Positions 572-62,155 of a stretch of 64,000 nt of DNA are shown in pieces. Positions within the stretch are counted from its first letter, which is position 1, and each line of letters opens with the position of its first letter. Both the position numbers and the translations under genes were made by a program. The notes beneath the pieces were generated by a model that was not told the DNA's origin, searched no databases, and worked only from the letters and a program-made list of their open reading frames with translations. Source of the stretch: Escherichia phage SkaterBoy_Bas90; the sequence record PQ850626.1; one strand, given 5' to 3'.

Positions 572-3500
572 ATGGCGCTGTATCCAATAAAGTCACTAGG
601 TGCTGTGGGCGTTATCGCTGATCAGGCTCCGACAGACTTAGCTCCTAATGCTTTCACTAATGCTATAAATGCTCGATTTGTTGAGCAGAGAGTATTTAAG
701 ACGGGGGGCAATGCCCCTCTTTCTTATGTAGATGAAGATAAGGATTTAACCCCTCTGTCTTTCGTTTCTATGCCTTTCGATTATTATAGCGCAGGTAATA
801 GCTTTCTTGTTGTAGGTACAAATAAGAAGTTATATAAACTAACAGATGAAAGCTTGACTGATATTAGCCGTAAGGTTGCTACAGTCACTAAGAAGGCTTC
901 TGCCTCAATTAAGATTTATCCAGTTGTTTCTCAGATCGTTCCTAAAGAATCAACTATCTCAATGAACTTCAATCAGACCAAGAATCTAGAGGTTTCTCTT
1001 CTCCCTGCTGATGCTAACAATACCGATCTTATTTGGGAGGTTAGTAACTCATCCTATGGAAGTATTACGGTAGACCCTAGTGACTCTAAACTTGCTACTC
1101 TAACATCTTTTGAGAAAGAGGGTAATCTTGTAGTAACTATCTCTACTGCCAATGAATCTGTAGTGGCTCAGATTGCTGTTAATATCATCGATGGTGATTC
1201 AGGCATCTTCTTGAGTCAAGATACTGTTACAATTCGTAAAGGAGGGACTACTACTCTCACGGCTGTTACTGGCAAAACTCCTGTAACTTGGTCCAGCAAT
1301 AACGCTTCTATTGTATCTGTAACTCCTAACGCCAACTCTTTAACTGCTGTCATTACAGCGAATGGAGAAGGTAATGTAACAATCACTGCTGATAACGGGA
1401 CTAAGACTGCTTCTTGTGAGATTGTTTCTATCCCTCAGATTGATAGCATTTCTTTAAGCCAGTCAGATGTTACTGTGAGTAGAGGTTCTCAGTATATCTT
1501 AACTGCTACCCTTTCTCCTGCTAACGCCCCTAATCAAAATATTACTTGGACCTCTTCTAATCCAAATATTGCAACAGTATCAGGGACTGGCACACAAGGG
1601 ACGATCAACGCTCTACTTGCTGGTTTTACTGAGATTACAGCTACCACTGAAGAAGGTAGCAGAGTTGCTGTCTGTACTGTACGTGTGGATTTAGCTGGAA
1701 GGACAATGAGAACAAGTGCTATGGCATTTGCCGCTCCTGTGTCAGAGTCAGTAGAAACTCAAGAGGAAGAAGTAGTAACTCCTCCTGAAAGTGAAGAGAC
1801 GGTTTATTTTGCTGAGCCTACATCCGGTATTGATACGTCAGGGATGTACGAAGGTAATAACTTCTATGACTACTCTAACGTGAACGACATTGAAGGTTTT
1901 GCAAGAGCTTCTTTACTGGCAACCCCTCTGTCATCTGTAACCTTAGATATTGTCAGCGCTTCTCTTGATGTTGGTGAAGAGATTGTCATTACCGCTACGG
2001 CTTCTCCAGAAGGCGATTATTCTTATCAATGGTCTGTTGATAAAACTGGCTATGTTTCTACAACTTCAGTCACTGGTAAATCTATCAAACTGGTTGCTCT
2101 CCGTAAAGGGGAGATTAATGTAACTTGTACTGTTAGTCAGATGACTCAGAAAGATTACGATGCTTTTGATGACTATCCTTGGTATCACGCTGTTATCTCT
2201 AACTGTGCAGTTGCTACAACTCACTATGAAACTCCTCAGGTAAAAGAATTCGAATCAGAATACTTTGTAGACCTTCCGGGGTGGGGTGAGCAAACAGTTG
2301 TTGATAATGATGGAAACCCTTCAGTCAAGAAGTTTAACTGGAAATGTGAGAGAGTAAGATCTTTTAACAACCGTCTTTTTGCTCTGAATATGAGAGAGGC
2401 TAATGCTTCTGGTGTTACCACTAACTACCCGCTTCGTCTTCGTTGGTCTAACTTTGCCAATGAGAACAAGGCTCCTACACTGTGGGATGACTTTGCCTAT
2501 GATCGAGTTGTGTCTTCGGACTTAGCTTCTAACATCGTAGGGCAGACTCAGGCTCTAGAGAATGGGTATGCTGGTTACATTGACTTAGCTGACTCTAATG
2601 GTAGCTTGATTGATATCCTGCCTCTTAAAGATTACTTGTTCGTTTACACAGAGTTTGAAACGTATATTGGTTCTCCGACTAATAACACGTACCAACCTCT
2701 AATGTTCAAGAAGCTCTTTAACGACTCTGGTATCCTTGCTCCTGAGTGTGTAGTTGAAGTAGAAGGTAGTCACTTCGTAGTTACTCAGAACGATGTAATC
2801 TTACATAATGGTGCAACCAAGAAATCAATTGCATCTAACCGTGTCAAGAACATGCTGATTAACGAGGTGTGTCTGGTTAACCCTCTAGCAACTAGAGTAC
2901 ACTTGCATCAGGATAAGAAAGAAGTCTGGGTTCTCTATGTAGGACCGGGGGAGCCAAAAGAAAGCTTCGCTTGTACCAAAGCTGCTGTATGGAATTATGA
3001 GTTTGATACCTGGTCTTTCCGTACTATCCCATATGCTCAGTGTATTGGTCTGGTTGATCCTCCTGTTTTAGAAAGAGGTCCAATCTGGTCTGACTTCCAA
3101 GAAATCACTTGGGATGACCCATCTATTAAAGAACTCGTTTGGAGAAAGGATGCAACAAACTTTAGACAGAGGGTTACGATAGTAGGTTCATTCTTGAAGG
3201 GATTCTATCAAGTGGATGTAGGTGCTCTTGATTATTTCTATGACAGGCTAAACGATGTTGTTATAGAGAAGCCTCTGGAAATGAGGTTGGAGAGGACTGG
3301 TATAGATTTTGATAATGTGACGAATGAGTGGAATCAGAAGCATATTAACAGGTTCCGACCTCAGACAACTGGTTCAGGTACTTACATATTTGAAGCTGGT
3401 GGTAGTCAATTCTCAAATGAATATGGACACCCACACACATCTAAGACATATACGATCGGTGTTGACAGGCATGTCTCGGTGAGACTGAACCATCCATACC

Positions 3501-10151: not shown

Positions 10152-10172
10152 GACCTAAGTCCTGCCTTCTAT

Positions 10173-20350: not shown

Positions 20351-20359
20351 TATACATTA
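20351..20359 (-). promoter_or_regulatory. TAATGTATA motif on the - strand, about 60 nt upstream of the SSB gene
   Basis: Plus strand reads TATACATTA; lies in a 415-bp AT-rich intergenic region. Confidence 0.4.
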
Positions 20360-20422: not shown

Positions 20423-20431
20423 TAATGTATA
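20423..20431 (+). promoter_or_regulatory. TAATGTATA motif on the + strand in the same intergenic region
   Basis: Exact TAATGTATA; it points into - strand genes, so it may drive antisense transcription or be non-functional. Confidence 0.25.
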
Positions 20432-23491: not shown

Positions 23492-25336
23492 TTAGTGTGT
23501 GTGCATCCAGTTAAGTCCAATCTGACAATCAGATGCCAGAGGACATTCCATGTTCAGATACTCGCCAGCTTTCTTAACACAAAGCTCAGTGTGCTCTTTG
23601 AGTTTCTGTACATCATTACGGTTTACTGAGAATTGACCTTCATCGTGCATATCAATTACCTTAGCACAACGAACCTTATCTTTCTCAATCCACTTGTTAA
23701 GGAACATCATAGCATATTTCATAACAACAGCACCAGCACATTGCAGGAGTGTGTTAAGGGCTTTATGAACCATAACCTTACCAGTGGCATCCCGTCTCAT
23801 TGTAATCTTACGACCATCAACTCCAATCAAGTATCCTTGAGCAGCTTTCTCTGTCATACGATCAATGAGGATTGCAATACATGGGTTCTCTGCTAAGAAA
23901 CGTGCTCGCATCACTGAACCTTCGTCAGCCCCACCACCTACAATTGAACCAAGCTTAGCATCGCCAGCACCGTAGTTGAATGCATAGATAAACGTTTTAG
24001 CGTTGTCACGAGTAGGAAGACCAGCAAGTTTCTGGTTGTGGGAGTGGATATCACCTTCAAGGAGAATATCACGATACATAATAGCAGAAGCTAAACCACG
24101 TTCTGCCAGAGCTTTCTTAGCTGGGTTGTTCTCTTCAATTGCCTCAGCAAGCATATCCCTACACTCTTTAATGAGGTAGTGAGCGAGCATACGAAGTTCA
24201 AGTCCAGAACCATCATACCCCAAGAATACTTCTTTACCAGCGGGTATGTAATATTTGTAAGCGCCTACAGGTTTGTCTTTCTTCCCCGGCTTACCTTTCT
24301 CGTAAATTACGTTAGTACCTTTTCGTATATAACAACCATCAGGAACAACGTTAGTAATAACGAAAGGACGAGAGTGATCACTGTCTGAGTTATAGTCAGA
24401 CTCAAACAAACTGCGACACTCGTGACCAAACAAACCACGGGAGGGAATATTAACCACGATACGATGTTTGAATCGAAAAGTTGGCGTAGCGCAGCTGTTA
24501 GCTTCTGCCGAAAGTTTACCATCTTCGCGTTCCTTTGCTATGAGTCCACTGATAAGACCTAGCCTGTGAGCCGCTACAACGCGTCTCTTAAGCAAACTTC
24601 CGACACTCCCTAGCTCACCCCCTAACCCTTCTTCAAGAGTCTCCTCGAGGTTTGTAGGAGCTGTAGGCCACTTGTTTGATGTGGCTAGTGCTTTCTTAAT
24701 CTCATCAAACGTTACAGGATTACGACGATTCGGGTTTAATCCCAAACCAAATACGTAAGCCTTCATATAATTCTTAGTTTTAAACCTGAAATGCTTTTCT
24801 AAGAACTTCTTAATATCAGCGTCAACCATCTCGGCTGTCTGCTTCTGCTTAGCATTGCCTCGCATCCAAGCAGTATACCATGCTTGGTACGTTCCATACT
24901 TTCTCATATCTTTCTTAATTTCGAAAGTATTCCAAGGCTTCTTAGATACGTTAAACTCTGGAGGAAGAAAGCCCTCATCCATAAGAGCTTCTTTAACTCG
25001 TGCATCTTTCGATGGGTCAAAGTCTACGTATTCGACACAGGTGAAAGCTCCACCAATATCTTCTCTCTTCAGCCCAACCCTATCACAATAGGCTTGAGGC
25101 CACTTCTGTAAAGCTCCAGACTTCTTAAACGGCTTCATGTAAGTAGAGCCGTCTAATCTCATCTTAGGTAAGAGAGGAATCAACTCTCTGTCAATATTAA
25201 CAATAATCTCTTTAAGGAGGTGAACATACCACCGAGCATTTCTTCGGTTGAAACTCACTCCGTGCTTTGCTTGCTTAGAGATTATATCAGCGACAGTCAT
25301 CTCTGTCAAAAATGGAAGAGCGTCCGGGTTGCTCAC
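23492..25336 (-). CDS. DNA polymerase, family A, polymerase domain only
   Basis: Motif A LGYDGSGLELRMLAH, motif B RDNAKTFIYAFNYGAGDAKLG, motif C VIDMHDEGQF; no DEDD exonuclease motifs in this ORF. Confidence 0.8.
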   Translation of the reverse strand: MSNPDALPFLTEMTVADIISKQAKHGVSFNRRNARWYVHLLKEIIVNIDRELIPLLPKMRLDGSTYMKPFKKSGALQKWPQAYCDRVGLKREDIGGAFTCVEYVDFDPSKDARVKEALMDEGFLPPEFNVSKKPWNTFEIKKDMRKYGTYQAWYTAWMRGNAKQKQTAEMVDADIKKFLEKHFRFKTKNYMKAYVFGLGLNPNRRNPVTFDEIKKALATSNKWPTAPTNLEETLEEGLGGELGSVGSLLKRRVVAAHRLGLISGLIAKEREDGKLSAEANSCATPTFRFKHRIVVNIPSRGLFGHECRSLFESDYNSDSDHSRPFVITNVVPDGCYIRKGTNVIYEKGKPGKKDKPVGAYKYYIPAGKEVFLGYDGSGLELRMLAHYLIKECRDMLAEAIEENNPAKKALAERGLASAIMYRDILLEGDIHSHNQKLAGLPTRDNAKTFIYAFNYGAGDAKLGSIVGGGADEGSVMRARFLAENPCIAILIDRMTEKAAQGYLIGVDGRKITMRRDATGKVMVHKALNTLLQCAGAVVMKYAMMFLNKWIEKDKVRCAKVIDMHDEGQFSVNRNDVQKLKEHTELCVKKAGEYLNMECPLASDCQIGLNWMHTH

Positions 25337-56625: not shown

Positions 56626-57534
56626 TTATGCCGCCTGACGTGCCGCCATAATTTCAGCCGCTTTACGCAATACTTCTTCCTCTTCTGCTTTCGCCGCTTG
56701 TTCGGTACGGGTAGCAACCGTTGAAGAGATACGACCGCGCAGACTTTCTAACTTCTCCTGCATAGCTGCAACAGTCTTTTCCATTTCATCAGCGTATGAA
56801 TCGAGTGATTCTAATTCCTTGCTTGATGCGTTCATCAGATAATCATCCGAGATCGCTACCGTCGAGGCCGTGATTTTCTTGATGAGTGAATCAAAGGACT
56901 TTTTAACCTTCCCAACTTCTTCACTCAGGGCGATAGTGTTATCGCTGGTTGCGCCGTTGCGCTCATCAGCCAGTAATTTGGCTTCAATACGGATTGCATT
57001 CAAGCGTTCAACCAAAGCGTAAATATCCTGATTAAAATCTTCCTTGTTTTTCGCCGGAATTTGCAGGTGTGCCGCCACGTTGTCATTGCAACCTTTGTAG
57101 AAGTTAGGATTATCCACTTCAATTGCACGACCTAATGCAAAGTTTTCGAAAGCGTTTGACCAGCGAGCGCGGTTTTGTTCCATTTTGGCCTTAATTTGCG
57201 CTTCTTTCGCATCTTCTTTAGCTTTCGCTTCACCTTCCAGATTAATCCACTTTTTACGACCATTCGCCGCATCAGTGTTAAACTTGATAGGAGTTAAGAA
57301 AGTAATCGCGGTGGCAATAACATCCATATCGCGGAAACGTTCGGTTAACAGGAAGTCAACCGCCGCCTGCAATACATCTAACTTCTTACCGTTGCTACGA
57401 AAGTGCTGCAAATGACCTAACAGGAAGTTAGAAACATCTTGTTTGATCGCCGCGTTATTACTGCGAATGTTGTTAGCCAGAGCATTAAAACCGGATTCGT
57501 TAACCAGAGTAAAGATTTTAGCCATAATATTCAC
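56626..57534 (-). CDS. hypothetical protein with a coiled-coil C-terminal half
   Basis: 302-aa ORF; first gene after the ORF-poor region; looks more GC-rich than its neighbours by eye. Confidence 0.4.
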   Translation of the reverse strand: MNIMAKIFTLVNESGFNALANNIRSNNAAIKQDVSNFLLGHLQHFRSNGKKLDVLQAAVDFLLTERFRDMDVIATAITFLTPIKFNTDAANGRKKWINLEGEAKAKEDAKEAQIKAKMEQNRARWSNAFENFALGRAIEVDNPNFYKGCNDNVAAHLQIPAKNKEDFNQDIYALVERLNAIRIEAKLLADERNGATSDNTIALSEEVGKVKKSFDSLIKKITASTVAISDDYLMNASSKELESLDSYADEMEKTVAAMQEKLESLRGRISSTVATRTEQAAKAEEEEVLRKAAEIMAARQAA

Positions 57535-57539
57535 CTTTC

Positions 57540-59490
57540 AATTGTAAGGGCGCTATTGCCCCGCTCTCTATGAGCTTGTTTAAGTCACTATTAACTTAAC
57601 TATAACCACTCGTTGTTAAGTAGTTATAGGTAAGCGGGGCGGTCTTATCAGGAGTTAACCTTGCCGCCCCCTTATCCGTGATGTTTCATCTGGTATCTTT
57701 AATTAGTCGCTATAAACGAAGCCGACCTGATAGCGATGATCAATCATCACAATAAGGCAGTGCGTCCGACTCTAATTAGTTACGTTATTGTAACCGTCGG
57801 CAATATCGTTTACTTTGCTTTCGCTCTCGCCTATCCTTTTATATCAACTCTCAATCGCTAGTCATCGCCCACTACGGGATACTATTGCGAAAGAGTCATT
57901 GACCGTCTAATGTTCCGACGTTTTATATCTTTCGGCAAGTTTACTACATAAACCGACTATGTACTTTCATCATAAGATGAATCTCAAGCCGTTCACATTG
58001 TAAACGTTCACACTAAACCTTATTGTTAAATAGCAATTTGCCACTTTTTAACCACTCCCCGCCGCTCTCAATTGAGCGTTAATTCGTCGGGATTGCCTAC
58101 CCTGATTAACTTCTTTCACTGTAGCACCGTGTTAGCAATGACCGCCGCTACCCTTAACCGTGGGCGATTAGCTCAAGTCTTTGCGTGTACTCAATGAATC
58201 CGTTTATCAATGGTGACGTTTCCAGTAAGGGAATGTAAAACTGTTTACCCTGATAATTTAGGGAGTTTTACGCCGTTTTATCTGGTATGCTTTCCGATGG
58301 TTATTATCATCAAGCATATTCAACCGATATAGGAGAATGTTTAAATTATTAAAGAGCGGTAAATCTATCAGTGTGCTTTCTCACACTATGCAACTGTTAG
58401 CCGTTGTTACGCTTTTCACTGAAGCGATGATTTGCTTAGTGAGTGCTCATTATGAATCATGTTGTTTTCGCTGTCAACCGCTTTTTAATCTTTTTCGTCG
58501 TTCCCGCTATTGGGAGGATATATCAATCAGCTTTATTTGATTGAAGATTAAGCGGTGAGGCTTAACTTATGACTCATATTGTTAAAGAGCGTTTAGCCTT
58601 TTAAAGTGTCTGCTAATCACTGTCACATTGAAGGCTTACTGATTCATTAACAGGCCGCCTACACCTGAACTAATCGCTGCACTATGTGCCACCTTTCCCG
58701 CGATACGTTGATTTGGGAACTAGTTAGCGATGTTTTGCTAACTTGTGGTTAGTATGGACTACTTTAACCACGTTTGCAACTCTTTTTATCATCTTCTTTT
58801 AATTCCTTTCCCTTATCTCGCGTGAATCTATGCGAAAGGGCAAGATGATAAGTCTGATTTGTCTTTCAGGGAATCTAGTGCGCTTTCAAGCATTAATCTT
58901 TTGAAAGTATCGAACAAATAAGGCTTATTGATATTGCTTATTGTCCGCCTGCGTCACGTATGAATCAGGAATCAATTCTACCGATTAACTGAGCGCCTTA
59001 TAGTAATGACGTCGCCGCCACCCGTAAGACAAATCATATTTTTAAAGAGCGGGATTTTTTAAGTCATCGCTGACTATGCTCACTATATATCAGGCTGTTT
59101 TCGGTGTCAATACTCTTTTTAAGAATATTTTCACTTTCTAGCCTGATTTTTAAAGAGCGGGGCAAGTTTCCTTGCCTTGTATGTTTTACATCGTACCCGA
59201 TGAAATGAAGTATACATTAATCAGTGAGGGATGCAATAGGGTAAAACAAAATATTTTAAACTTTTTCACTATAGGAAGGTAAAAGAGCGGGCGAACGTGA
59301 TACATCATAGGAAAAGGCTTGTAAAGCGATAACAAGCGGCCTATAACGCATCACAATGAGCTAAAAGGGAGTAAGGTATACAATCACCTTAGAAAAGAAA
59401 AAAGCCTCATAGCGAGGCTTATAGGAAGGATTTAAAGCATCAGATAGATTATGACCATAGGCATGACTACGGCACAATACAGGAGAAAGA
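57540..59490. repeat. ~1.9 kb ORF-poor, repeat-rich region (five TTAAAGAGCG(G) direct repeats, two TTT(C/T)ATCTGGTAT repeats, several hairpins)
   Basis: Only one track ORF (67 aa) in six frames; TTAAAGAGCG copies near 58349, 58582, 59042, 59150, 59280; a - strand TAATGTATA at 59211..59219. Confidence 0.6.
59211..59219 (-). promoter_or_regulatory. TAATGTATA motif on the - strand inside the ORF-poor region
   Basis: Plus strand reads TATACATTA; would drive transcription leftwards through the repeat region. Confidence 0.35.
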
Positions 59491-59496
59491 TTAAGC

Positions 59497-59874
59497 CTAT
59501 GGATTTACACATTGACCATTACCGGACTCAATTTCATTCATGGACTCATCAAAGAGCGTCAACGATGAGCGCATCAAGTGATCTATCGTGATTTGTTTAC
59601 CGGTAGTTTCATTTACCAGCAGAATAGCTTTGTTATCTGATTGCACATGATCAAAATCATTTACATGCAAAATAATAACTTTAGGTGACTGTTTACCAGT
59701 TTCATAGTTTTCTATCAAATAGGTGCACTGTAAACCGTCAACCGTAGCAGGGGAGAACATTGCAGCCTTAACACTACCCATAGACGATAGGAGAACGCCC
59801 AGCAGGAGAACGACAAGGAAGAAGCCCACGAATACTTTTACTACAAATTTGATAATACCCATGATAATAATCAC
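59497..59874 (-). CDS. membrane protein (N-terminal transmembrane segment)
   Basis: MGIIKFVVKVFVGFFLVVLLLGVLL hydrophobic N-terminus. Confidence 0.4.
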   Translation of the reverse strand: MIIIMGIIKFVVKVFVGFFLVVLLLGVLLSSMGSVKAAMFSPATVDGLQCTYLIENYETGKQSPKVIILHVNDFDHVQSDNKAILLVNETTGKQITIDHLMRSSLTLFDESMNEIESGNGQCVNP

Positions 59875-61373: not shown

Positions 61374-61559
61374 TTGATATTCCTTATGGTTGATGAAAAC
61401 TACAAACTACAATCGCAACTATATAATAAAGGAAAAGGCTGTCAACCGTTTATTTTCTAACTTTCTTGCATCCTACTGAAAACTAAAGGAATTTAATTTG
61501 CTAAACTTTCCATACTCAGAGAATCAGCTTACTAGATATTGTTACTTTATAACACTACG

Positions 61560-62020
61560 GGTAACAGACCAACAGACCAGGACAAACGGGGATACAACAA
61601 CCGCAGGACAGACCACGGGGAAACATGCAAGATAGTGCGGTAATAATATACCACTTAAATAATTGTATAACTCAAACATCAAAGACGTTCGCTACGCTCA
61701 CAAAGGCACGCTGAAAAAGAAAAGAATAAAAGAAATAATTAAAAGAAATACAATCATCCACTTAATTAATACATACATCATTATTGCACTCATAATAACA
61801 ACTATTGAAACTATTTACATTCAAACTATGGGGGATGGGATGGTTACTATACGGTATTATTAACCCTCTTATGGTAGTGCCTGTACTAGTTTATACAGTG
61901 CTGGCCTTTCTCTCACTCAGTAAAGGGGAACTAAATAAACGGGTAGATAATGTATTGGGTAGTATACACGGGGGAATAATTACGGGGAGTAGGCACGGGG
62001 AAAGGTGAAACGTTGAAAGG
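61560..62020. promoter_or_regulatory. divergent intergenic control region with iteron-like ACGGGGA repeats
   Basis: ACGGGGA at about 61586, 61616, 61969, 61992, 62006; CAGGACA(A/G)ACC repeats; a TAATGTATT variant at 61948..61956; lies between leftward and rightward genes. Confidence 0.45.
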
Positions 62021-62155
62021 GAAGGTAAAGGCATTGCCAATAACCCTTTTTTAAATGAGGACTCCCCCCTTTTTAGGAAACGCGCGGGAAGCGGCTAGCC
62101 CCATTCGGTCAAATCAGAATTTTAAACTCTTATATATAAGGTTGAAAGAGAACTT

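Follow-up and report, generated by a model that had tools for sequence, protein, structure and literature searches.

BoxA-consensus repeats and a predicted ~800-nucleotide structured RNA in a gene-free early stretch of a phiEco32-like coliphage

Between positions 57540 and 59490 of the window analyzed here, a 64,000-nucleotide (nt) stretch of DNA from Escherichia phage SkaterBoy_Bas90 (PQ850626.1), about 1.9 kb free of genes lies upstream of gene 124. We consider it probable that this gene-free stretch is an untranslated early transcription unit, organized like the leader of a ribosomal RNA (rrn) operon and served by rrn-type antitermination and RNA chaperoning through host Nus factors. Its direct repeats match the BoxA consensus on the minus strand and are predicted to be RNA signals for NusB-NusE/S10 binding, and the ~800 nt directly preceding gene 124 are, by comparative analysis, a previously unannotated, conserved, heavily folded RNA with ~36 helices. 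What appears to be new is the context in which rrn-type BoxA antitermination would operate here and its link to a large RNA that belongs to no known class.

Direct repeats in the stretch match the BoxA consensus

The initial annotation described an array of TTAAAGAGCG(G) direct repeats in this stretch. The array was recovered as exactly four copies of TAAAGAGCG in the window, all on the plus strand (at 58350, 58583, 59043, and 59151), together with a fifth, degenerate copy at 59280 (TAAAAGAGCGG); 0.29 copies of TAAAGAGCG were expected, and four were reached in none of 100 shuffles. The repeat had nevertheless been read on the wrong strand. On the minus strand, TTAAAGAGCG(G) becomes CGCTCTTTAA(N)A, which corresponds to BoxA, the host RNA signal for NusB/S10, whose gamma-proteobacterial consensus is GYTCTTTAANA (PMC5725501). 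Five perfect matches to GYTCTTTAANA were found in the whole window, compared with 0.59 expected, and four of them lie in the stretch, all on the minus strand and within 58347-59158 (BoxA B to E; Table 1). The only other perfect match (GTTCTTTAATA, 3124-3134, minus strand) runs antisense to the late genes, which point rightward, and agrees with the ~0.6 matches expected by chance. The sequence CGCTCTTTAACAAT, which contains BoxA D, is identical at 12 of 13 positions to the Escherichia coli rrn BoxA, TGCTCTTTAACAA, and differs in the first base; several relatives read GCTCTTTAACAATTTA, identical over 16 nt to the rrn leader.

The repeat proved to be strongly conserved in homologous phages, a check that had been suggested along with the array. 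A count over the 2 kb preceding gene 124 in 30 distinct relatives gave 121 perfect BoxA copies (3-5 per phage), all 121 in the sense orientation and none antisense. All specified positions are invariant among these copies and only the consensus N varies, and the extended consensus among the relatives is C-GCTCTTTAA-N-AAT. BoxA E is located inside an 18-nt block that is invariant across the 30 relatives.

More divergent sequences came from contigs encoding distant homologues of the gene 124 product, gp124; scans of IMG/VR and of metagenomes yielded few new relatives. Homologues with 47-70% amino acid identity led to nine contigs in public read-set assemblies (Logan), which are 48-65% identical to the window. 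Each of the nine carries one to three sense BoxA copies and no antisense copy, and the last BoxA is found 870-936 nt before the gene 124 homologue. BoxA E reads GCTCTTTAACAAT unchanged in all nine, whereas its flanks have diverged.

The stretch is non-coding and conserved

The ~2.2 kb around the repeats are 99.9% identical to Escherichia phage YW01, with matches in 97-98 phiEco32-like phages (Kuravirus, Suseptimavirus, and Nieuwekanaalvirus); by sequence, the window belongs to a phiEco32-like Kuravirus. The equivalent in phiEco32 is the unannotated interval 72,796-74,730 between phi32_124 and phi32_125, both on the minus strand, and early genes of phiEco32 are transcribed leftward, the same direction as the minus strand here (PMC8948821). 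The right end of the phiEco32 genome corresponds to about position 62,096 of the window (its last 400 nt align at 61688-62096), which places the stretch 2.6-4.5 kb inside the leftward-transcribed early arm. The direct terminal repeat (DTR) is 193 bp long (PMC9965538). A terminal repeat or pac site, one of the alternatives first offered for the region, is ruled out by this position, 2.6 kb away from the genome end.

The gap is left blank in nearly all of 98 related GenBank records, and a few carry 5-11 tiny open reading frames (ORFs); annotators currently leave the region empty or insert spurious small ORFs. The statement that the stretch holds a single ORF of 67 amino acids (aa) holds at a 60-aa cut-off but not at a lower one, at which twelve ORFs of 31-67 aa were found on both strands. 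These twelve, together with the tiny ORFs annotated in some records, would be the substance of an account in which the region encodes several small proteins missed by annotators, and we regard that account as extremely improbable. The longest ORF (58337..58540, plus strand) has ACG or AAG in place of ATG in eight relatives and is shortened to 20-50 aa in most, and the minus strand contains no ORF of at least 30 aa between 57540 and 59060. Variability by codon phase, computed on the alignment of 30 distinct relatives, showed the expected codon periodicity in gene 124 (0.045/0.028/0.195) and none in the 830 nt upstream of it (0.072/0.082/0.067). In no 120-nt window of this leader did the phase ratio exceed 2.1, compared with ~7 in gene 124, and leader indels are of lengths that are not multiples of three. 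The leader sequence is non-coding; with neither substitution periodicity nor conserved ORFs, protein-coding sequence was rejected. Its mean variability was 0.077, against 0.089 for gene 124, and far below that of third-codon positions, and the alignment indicates that the leader is under purifying selection.

A conserved ~800-nt RNA upstream of gene 124

A consensus structure was computed with RNAalifold on 30 sequences running from the predicted start site (~58442) to the ATG of gene 124. The fold comprises 243 pairs in 40 helices, ~36 of which make up the large RNA (58345-57547). In this fold, 99.1% of cells were paired, compared with 95.1% in shuffles and 33-47% when the partners were slid by 1-3 columns. 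Changes on both sides were seen in 73 pairs, against 31.5 ± 2.8 in shuffles (73 was reached in 0 of 500) and 6-12 in slid controls, and in 331 cells, against 87.5 and 13-31, respectively. G-U pairs account for 11% of cells, and the same pairs read on the opposite strand were 88.2% paired versus 99.1% in the sense; the RNA is therefore predicted to be the minus-strand transcript. The single-sequence minimum free energy (MFE) is -283 kcal/mol (z = -8.39). Covariance analysis had been proposed as a check of the region, and compensatory change in 73 of 243 pairs, specific to one strand, bears the proposal out. Conservation at the nucleic acid level, in the form of a long structured RNA or leader, is strongly supported by the non-coding status, the purifying selection, and the strand-specific covariation.

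As the fold was derived from the same alignment on which covariation was counted, an out-of-sample test was sought. The 30-sequence structure was projected onto the nine distant contigs through a sequence-only alignment. There, 69.5% of cells were paired, versus 36-43% with slid partners, and 143 of 243 pairs showed compensatory change, versus 30-36. In addition, nhmmer detected the large RNA in all nine contigs (E 1e-108 to 1e-22). Upstream of the gene, ~3 kb without called genes were found in the first three contigs and a gene-free stretch of at least 1-3 kb in the other six, three of which are bounded by the contig end. With ~3 kb free of called genes upstream of the gp124 homologue, contigs L042, L044, L045, L047, and L051 keep both the RNA and BoxA. 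Two of the distant contigs, with lengths of 87-96 kb, were not found in the GenBank phage collection that was searched.

Compensatory change in these contigs supports domain I, domain II, and the 3' hairpins as predicted folded units (Table 1). In the group with ~70% identity in gp124, the closing helix of domain I shows 100% pairing and 17 compensatory cells; domain I is poorly aligned in the most distant group. The central and domain II part was found by nhmmer in all distant contigs. Helix 20, invariant among close relatives, changes in the distant contigs from AACAATAAGG/CCTTATTGT to AACAATATGG/CCTATATTGT and to TAACAATTTGG/CCAAATTGTG, and helix 37 is 92-100% paired there with 37 compensatory cells. 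The large RNA was always found directly upstream of gene 124, in close relatives as well as in the distant contigs.

Among the 30 close relatives, the longest invariant block is GCAAATTGCTATTTAACAATAAGG (58018-58041, minus strand). It contains UGCUAUUUAACAA, which is one base from the rrn BoxA (C4 to A, a position reported to be critical). Because the block is predicted to be base-paired and varies with compensatory changes in the distant contigs, UGCUAUUUAACAA is probably structural rather than a sixth BoxA. The second repeat pair claimed for the region, GTTT(C/T)ATCTGGTAT, was found as described, at 57683 and 58275. Both copies (57683-57696 and 58275-58288; in the RNA sense, AUACCAGAU(G/A)AAAC) are inside the large RNA and almost invariant in the 30 phages, yet they have different predicted structural contexts; by an estimate of ~0.3 expected, their 13/14 match is not significant by chance alone.

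The large RNA did not resemble the families to which it was compared. At Rfam gathering thresholds, only a tRNA-Arg elsewhere in the window passed; with E values up to 10, eight hits in 57400-59600 scored 15-22 bits against thresholds of 34-98, and the known Rfam families, including GOLLD, ROOL, HEARO, OLE, leaders, and small RNAs, were thus rejected as below the gathering threshold. Neither rRNA nor tRNA was found in the stretch, and blastn gave no match to the large RNA in 5,426 complete E. coli genomes. The idea of a CsrA sponge was dropped, GGA motifs not being enriched (8 versus 16 expected).

The ~800-nt RNA may act in cis, as the leader of gene 124, or may be a free RNA with a function of its own. 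More tentatively, and with a probability that we put well below even, it may represent a new class of large phage RNAs that function autonomously, for example as a ribonucleoprotein scaffold, a decoy, a catalyst, or a self-assembling particle, and it would be made from a unit that copies the design of the host rRNA operon in order to borrow its Nus/SuhB antitermination-and-folding machine. If this is true, the rrn system is put to use by a virulent phage to make an RNA that is not ribosomal, and that RNA may have the co-inherited gp124 as its protein partner.

A second predicted domain, which we call element 2, has a consensus fold of 53 pairs, seven of them with compensatory changes, two of which are in the closing helix. 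Some but not all Kuraviruses carry it, as does, at ~75% identity, PJNS034, an unrelated phage of 65.7 kb (BLAST E 1e-21 to 1e-24). The ~240 nt between element 2 and BoxA D (58600-58835) occur only in the phages with the longest gap, namely the phage of the window, YW01, ECBP2, KBNP1711, and a few others; in other phages, 130 or 315 nt separate the BoxA copies corresponding to C and D.

Table 1. Features of the gene-free stretch and its borders, in the order of leftward transcription; all are on the minus strand.
Feature	Position	Strand	Description
Intrinsic terminator (predicted)	59402..59420	-	After gene 125; AAGCCTCGCTATGAGGCTT then T-run; found by terminator scan; the SU7 record independently annotates one at the equivalent place
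Degenerate BoxA-like element	59278..59288	-	GCTCTTTTACC, preceded by a hairpin at ~59348-59303; fails GYTCTTTAANA; restricted to some relatives
gp36 (phage sigma)-type promoter element	59211..59219	-	TAATGTATA; at this place in ECBP2 and KBNP1711, not in phiEco32
Hairpin, boxB-like position	59161..59176	-	GGCAAG-GAAA-CTTGCC, 2 nt upstream of BoxA B
BoxA B	59148..59158	-	GCTCTTTAAAA; perfect consensus match; kept in relatives
Sigma-70 promoter (predicted)	59082..59110	-	TTGACA-17-TATAGT, 11/12; A/T-rich upstream; start predicted near 59075; homologous promoters in relatives
Hairpin	59062..59075	-	AGTCA-GCGA-TGACT, upstream of BoxA C
BoxA C	59040..59050	-	GCTCTTTAAAA; perfect match; ~+25 from predicted start site
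Structured domain, element 2 (~185 nt)	58855..59036	-	Closing helix starts 4 nt after BoxA C; consensus fold of the alignment
BoxA D	58580..58590	-	GCTCTTTAACA, within CGCTCTTTAACAAT; perfect match; internal to the transcript from 59110
Sigma-70 promoter (predicted)	58449..58477	-	TTGACA-17-CATAAT, 11/12; UP-like AAAAAGATTAAAAAG upstream; start predicted near 58442
Hairpin, boxB-like position	58369..58388	-	UAGUGUG...CACACUG, before BoxA E; covariation
BoxA E	58347..58357	-	GCTCTTTAATA; perfect match; ~+85 from predicted start site
Large RNA, domain I (~300 nt)	58047..58345	-	Helices 5-18; 13-column (11-pair) closing helix starts 2 nt after BoxA E
Large RNA, central hairpin and domain II (~300 nt)	57749..58046	-	Helices 19-31; domain II is 58026-57749; holds 24-nt invariant block GCAAATTGCTATTTAACAATAAGG (58041-58018)
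Large RNA, 3' hairpin series	57547..57748	-	Helices 32-40; ends 8 nt before the gene 124 Shine-Dalgarno; includes helix 57629-57620 / 57609-57600
Shine-Dalgarno (GAAAGGTGAAT) and ATG of gene 124	57523..57539	-	299 aa; PHROG 13018 (function unknown)

Predicted promoters and hairpins accompany the BoxA copies

Sigma-70 matches were scored out of 12. Six matches of at least 11/12 were found in the 64-kb window, all on the minus strand and two of them inside the stretch; the three top-scoring sites between 56.5 and 62.5 kb, at 61445, 59110, and 58477, are likewise all on the minus strand. The 58477 promoter occupies the same relative position (~-945 to -982 from the gene 124 ATG) in 15 of 15 phages compared, and a similar promoter was found at that place in six of the nine distant contigs. 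In the 15 phages, every near-consensus promoter of the gap (10-12/12) has a BoxA 52-153 nt downstream, usually 52-120 nt, and the number and spacing of these promoter-BoxA modules vary; BoxA D, for example, has its own promoter 52 nt upstream in SU7, NC-B, EK010, and Bas88. The promoter at 61445 is followed ~40 nt later by a translated gene, without a BoxA. Near-consensus sigma-70-like sites (11-12 of 12) at 25309, 38603, and 18580, all on the minus strand and deep in the middle-gene region, do not lead to a BoxA either.

In the phage of the window, one BoxA follows a gp36-type TAATGTATA element rather than a sigma-70 site, the consensus for such promoters being taken from PMC8948821. A TAATGTATA motif pointing into the region had been proposed to drive its transcription. 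The motif is indeed at that place on the minus strand, but only some relatives have it, and the conserved drivers are predicted to be the sigma-70 sites at 59110-59082 and 58477-58449. Five copies of TAATGTATA occur in the window, versus 0.55 expected; the other exact copies form a divergent pair 72 nt apart (20351-20359, minus; 20423-20431, plus) or lie at 10172 (plus) and 27204 (minus), and are presumably the middle and late promoters that depend on gp36, as described for phiEco32.

Across 102 distinct sequence contexts upstream of BoxA, most have a hairpin that ends 0-13 nt before the element, and the mean MFE of these contexts is -7.0 kcal/mol, versus -4.9 kcal/mol for control 40-mers. In helix 3, the hairpin before BoxA E, three of seven pairs are changed on both sides (e.g., UA:18, CG:10, AU:2). 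On the sense strand and downstream of predicted promoters, BoxA would lie in the nascent RNA.

Proposed mechanism and alternative explanations

In established BoxA biology (PMC3177189, PMC4807359, PMC7665894, and PMC10250234), NusB-S10 is bound by BoxA as the RNA emerges, and together with NusA, NusG, and SuhB this protects RNA polymerase from Rho, which otherwise terminates untranslated transcripts; the BoxA/Nus complex is also implicated in rRNA folding. By analogy, host RNA polymerase would read the stretch leftward as an untranslated early unit from strong sigma-70 promoters and, in this lineage, one of the phage gp36 type, each followed by a small hairpin and a BoxA. The transcript would carry the two folded domains of ~185 and ~800 nt, the latter ending just before the ribosome-binding site of gene 124. 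NusB-S10 bound to the nascent BoxA, together with NusA, NusG, and SuhB, would render the polymerase processive and Rho-resistant, so that it could traverse an untranslated ~1-2 kb and continue into gene 124 and the early genes that follow. Long-range closing helices begin 2-4 nt after two of the BoxA copies, and for this reason the complex tethered to BoxA probably aids the formation of these helices as well, as has been proposed for 16S rRNA. Within the gap each promoter has its own BoxA copy, and BoxA was found only where the early transcript is long and untranslated. These two features, with the internal, spacer-like copy and the two copies before closing helices, suggest that the phage uses host rrn-type antitermination to transcribe, and probably to fold, its leader.

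Several observations weigh against this proposal. All promoters, start sites, and transcription features are predictions. By inspection of the sequence 3' of each copy, no boxC-like GU-rich element follows BoxA; boxC was looked for as UGUGUGGG, and no sequence after the copies resembles it. Being richer in G than in C (211 versus 174) and densely paired, the large RNA would by itself be a poor Rho substrate, which weakens a purely anti-Rho rationale. A closing helix directly follows just two of the four BoxA copies, and BoxA B is 48 nt upstream of the next promoter, where a role at the DNA level is possible. A helix predicted to pair the 5' flank of BoxA E with the Shine-Dalgarno of gene 124, invariant in close relatives, was 49-55% paired in the distant contigs and was dropped. 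Finally, no BoxA consensus was found in the right-end 12 kb of the related Salmonella phage 7-11 (L040, 78000-89916). The same 12 kb gave no sigma-70 match of at least 10/12, although two early promoters have been mapped there experimentally, and one gene annotated at this end is called 'anti-termination protein Q-like'.

The initial annotation also offered a replication origin or a protein-binding array, in which the repeats would act on DNA as iterons or operators, the origin possibly being activated by transcription as is the T7 primary origin. A long, conserved, gene-free region with direct repeats and strong promoters would suit such a role, as would the fixed position of BoxA B, 47-48 nt upstream of the next promoter in several phages. 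Against this stands the single orientation of all 121 copies, that of transcription, along with a copy number of 3 to 5 and widely varying distances to repeats and promoters; repeats 108-460 nt apart, variably spaced and in one orientation, are atypical for iterons. The motif is identical to the host RNA signal wherever the latter is specified (ten positions) and varies only at N, the last copy has no promoter after it, and the adjoining ~800 nt are conserved by RNA pairing with one-strand G-U wobble rather than by DNA symmetry. We found no positive support for the origin or the DNA-protein array in the sequence analysis and judge a DNA-level explanation quite unlikely. Still less can be said for an 11-mer without function that is merely carried along in duplicated promoter cassettes, the region then being redundant early promoters plus spacer DNA. 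The promoters at 59110 and 58477 do share their spacer and initial transcribed sequence, and the differing number of modules between phages does indicate duplication and loss. However, the sequence from promoter to BoxA differs among modules and phages while the 11-mer is invariant, the motif is unchanged in contigs that are ~50% identical and have changed flanks, and a spacer would not give 73-143 covarying base pairs; we consider this reading very improbable.

A further possibility accepts BoxA as real and assigns it mainly to hijacking or titrating NusB, S10, and SuhB, so that host rRNA synthesis is depressed or polymerase is moved into rrn-like foci, with the folded RNA being secondary. 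With several BoxA copies in each genome, placed behind near-consensus promoters that have UP-like elements, a high dose of early transcript would be expected. As the principal function this seems unlikely to us, for it leaves unexplained both the strong selection on ~800 nt of structure and the constant BoxA ~0.9 kb before gene 124; titration of Nus factors as an effect added to rrn-type antitermination of the leader is possible.

Comparison with known systems

The stretch resembles the E. coli rrn leader in that a strong predicted sigma-70 promoter with an A/T-rich upstream region is followed by a hairpin and then by BoxA. As in rrn operons, a long untranslated folded RNA would be closed by long-range helices, and the internal BoxA D is placed like the BoxA of the 16S-23S spacer. 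The order of elements and the proposed dual role, anti-Rho and folding, also parallel the rrn antiterminator as outlined in PMC4807359 and PMC10250234. Unlike rrn operons, the phage stretch has no rRNA or tRNA and no recognizable boxC, it ends in a protein-coding early operon of a virulent phage, and it carries up to five BoxA elements within 1.2 kb.

Like lambda nutL and nutR, the phage would use host NusB/S10 through BoxA in early transcripts, and the first base is C, as in the lambda form CGCTCTTA. In lambda, however, the boxB hairpin follows BoxA and binds N, whereas here the hairpin comes before BoxA and a long-range helix or a promoter after it; with the order of hairpin and BoxA reversed, a lambda-type nut site was rejected. 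The phage BoxA moreover has the full rrn-type consensus, which works without N in E. coli. BoxA elements upstream of clustered regularly interspaced short palindromic repeat (CRISPR) arrays (Stringer 2020, PMC7665894) and in the suhB 5' untranslated region (Baniulyte 2017, PMC5725501) are likewise non-rRNA Nus targets in which a long untranslated transcript is shielded from Rho; these are single chromosomal elements, while the phage has a multi-copy array coupled to large structured RNA domains.

In its size (~0.6-0.9 kb), its many covarying helices, and its invariant single-stranded blocks, the large RNA is comparable to GOLLD, ROOL, HEARO, OLE, and raiA. It differs from them in having no Rfam match, in its defined leader with promoter and BoxA, in the fixed gene that follows it, and in occurring in cultured E. 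coli phages. GOLLD and ROOL are also phage-associated (bioRxiv 2024.12.08.627333). T7, with A1, A2, and A3, and other virulent phages have strong, near-consensus host promoters in tandem that are clustered near one genome end and drive early genes. The predicted promoters of the stretch are similarly clustered near one genome end, but unlike those of T7, where a short leader is followed by translated genes, each of them is coupled to a BoxA, and they would feed a structured RNA of ~1-2 kb that is not translated.

Two other phages have gene-free leaders of their own of ~1.6-1.8 kb: Escherichia phage PJNS034 (L012, 2372-4195) and Pantoea phage TacPo2 (L041, 1749-3374). In both, consensus sigma-70 promoters are followed by sense-strand BoxA, two copies in PJNS034 and one in TacPo2. 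An nhmmer comparison of the large RNA with these leaders and with phage 7-11 matched BoxA itself only, and homology of the Kuravirus large RNA to the long leaders of PJNS034 and TacPo2 was thus not detectable by this method. BoxA-led untranslated leaders may be more widespread in phages of Enterobacterales.

BoxA/Nus antitermination is textbook knowledge for rRNA operons and lambda, and only lately have a few further transcripts of the host joined them. An array of several rrn-type BoxA copies in a virulent coliphage would be a new means by which phages overcome Rho on transcripts that are not translated, and it suggests an answer to the antitermination question that is open in the phiEco32/7-11 literature. 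It is rare for a structured RNA to reach 0.8 kb and dozens of covarying helices, and the majority of known examples stem from organisms that are uncultured or difficult to work with; the RNA described here is present in ~100 sequenced E. coli phages, including the laboratory model phiEco32, so that its expression, processing, partners, structure, and phenotype are directly testable. Together, BoxA and the large RNA would offer a natural system for testing BoxA-tethered polymerase as an RNA-folding chaperone. Our literature search found no paper linking BoxA or a structured RNA to these phages, although the original phiEco32 papers were outside its reach, so that an earlier mention of the promoters or the gap is possible. 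The gap is not discussed in the SU10, Kuravirus-expansion, 7-11, and svsR papers, and phiEco32, Kuravirus, and BoxA all go unmentioned in a catalogue of phage structured RNAs.

Neighboring genes

For gp124, searches for a function gave only sub-threshold Pfam hits and coiled-coil noise among PDB sequence hits, and its AlphaFold model (predicted local distance difference test score, pLDDT, 78) had no Foldseek match to the PDB at E <=0.001. On the other side, the predicted terminator at 59420-59402 separates the far-right early operon from the leader unit. Beyond it, the homologue of gene 125 in the early region (59497-59862, minus strand, 121 aa) is called 'terminase' in many GenBank records and in PHROG 13168 and has no Pfam match, and its 88-aa neighbor is called 'polymerase' in the YW01 record; both labels look like propagated misannotations.

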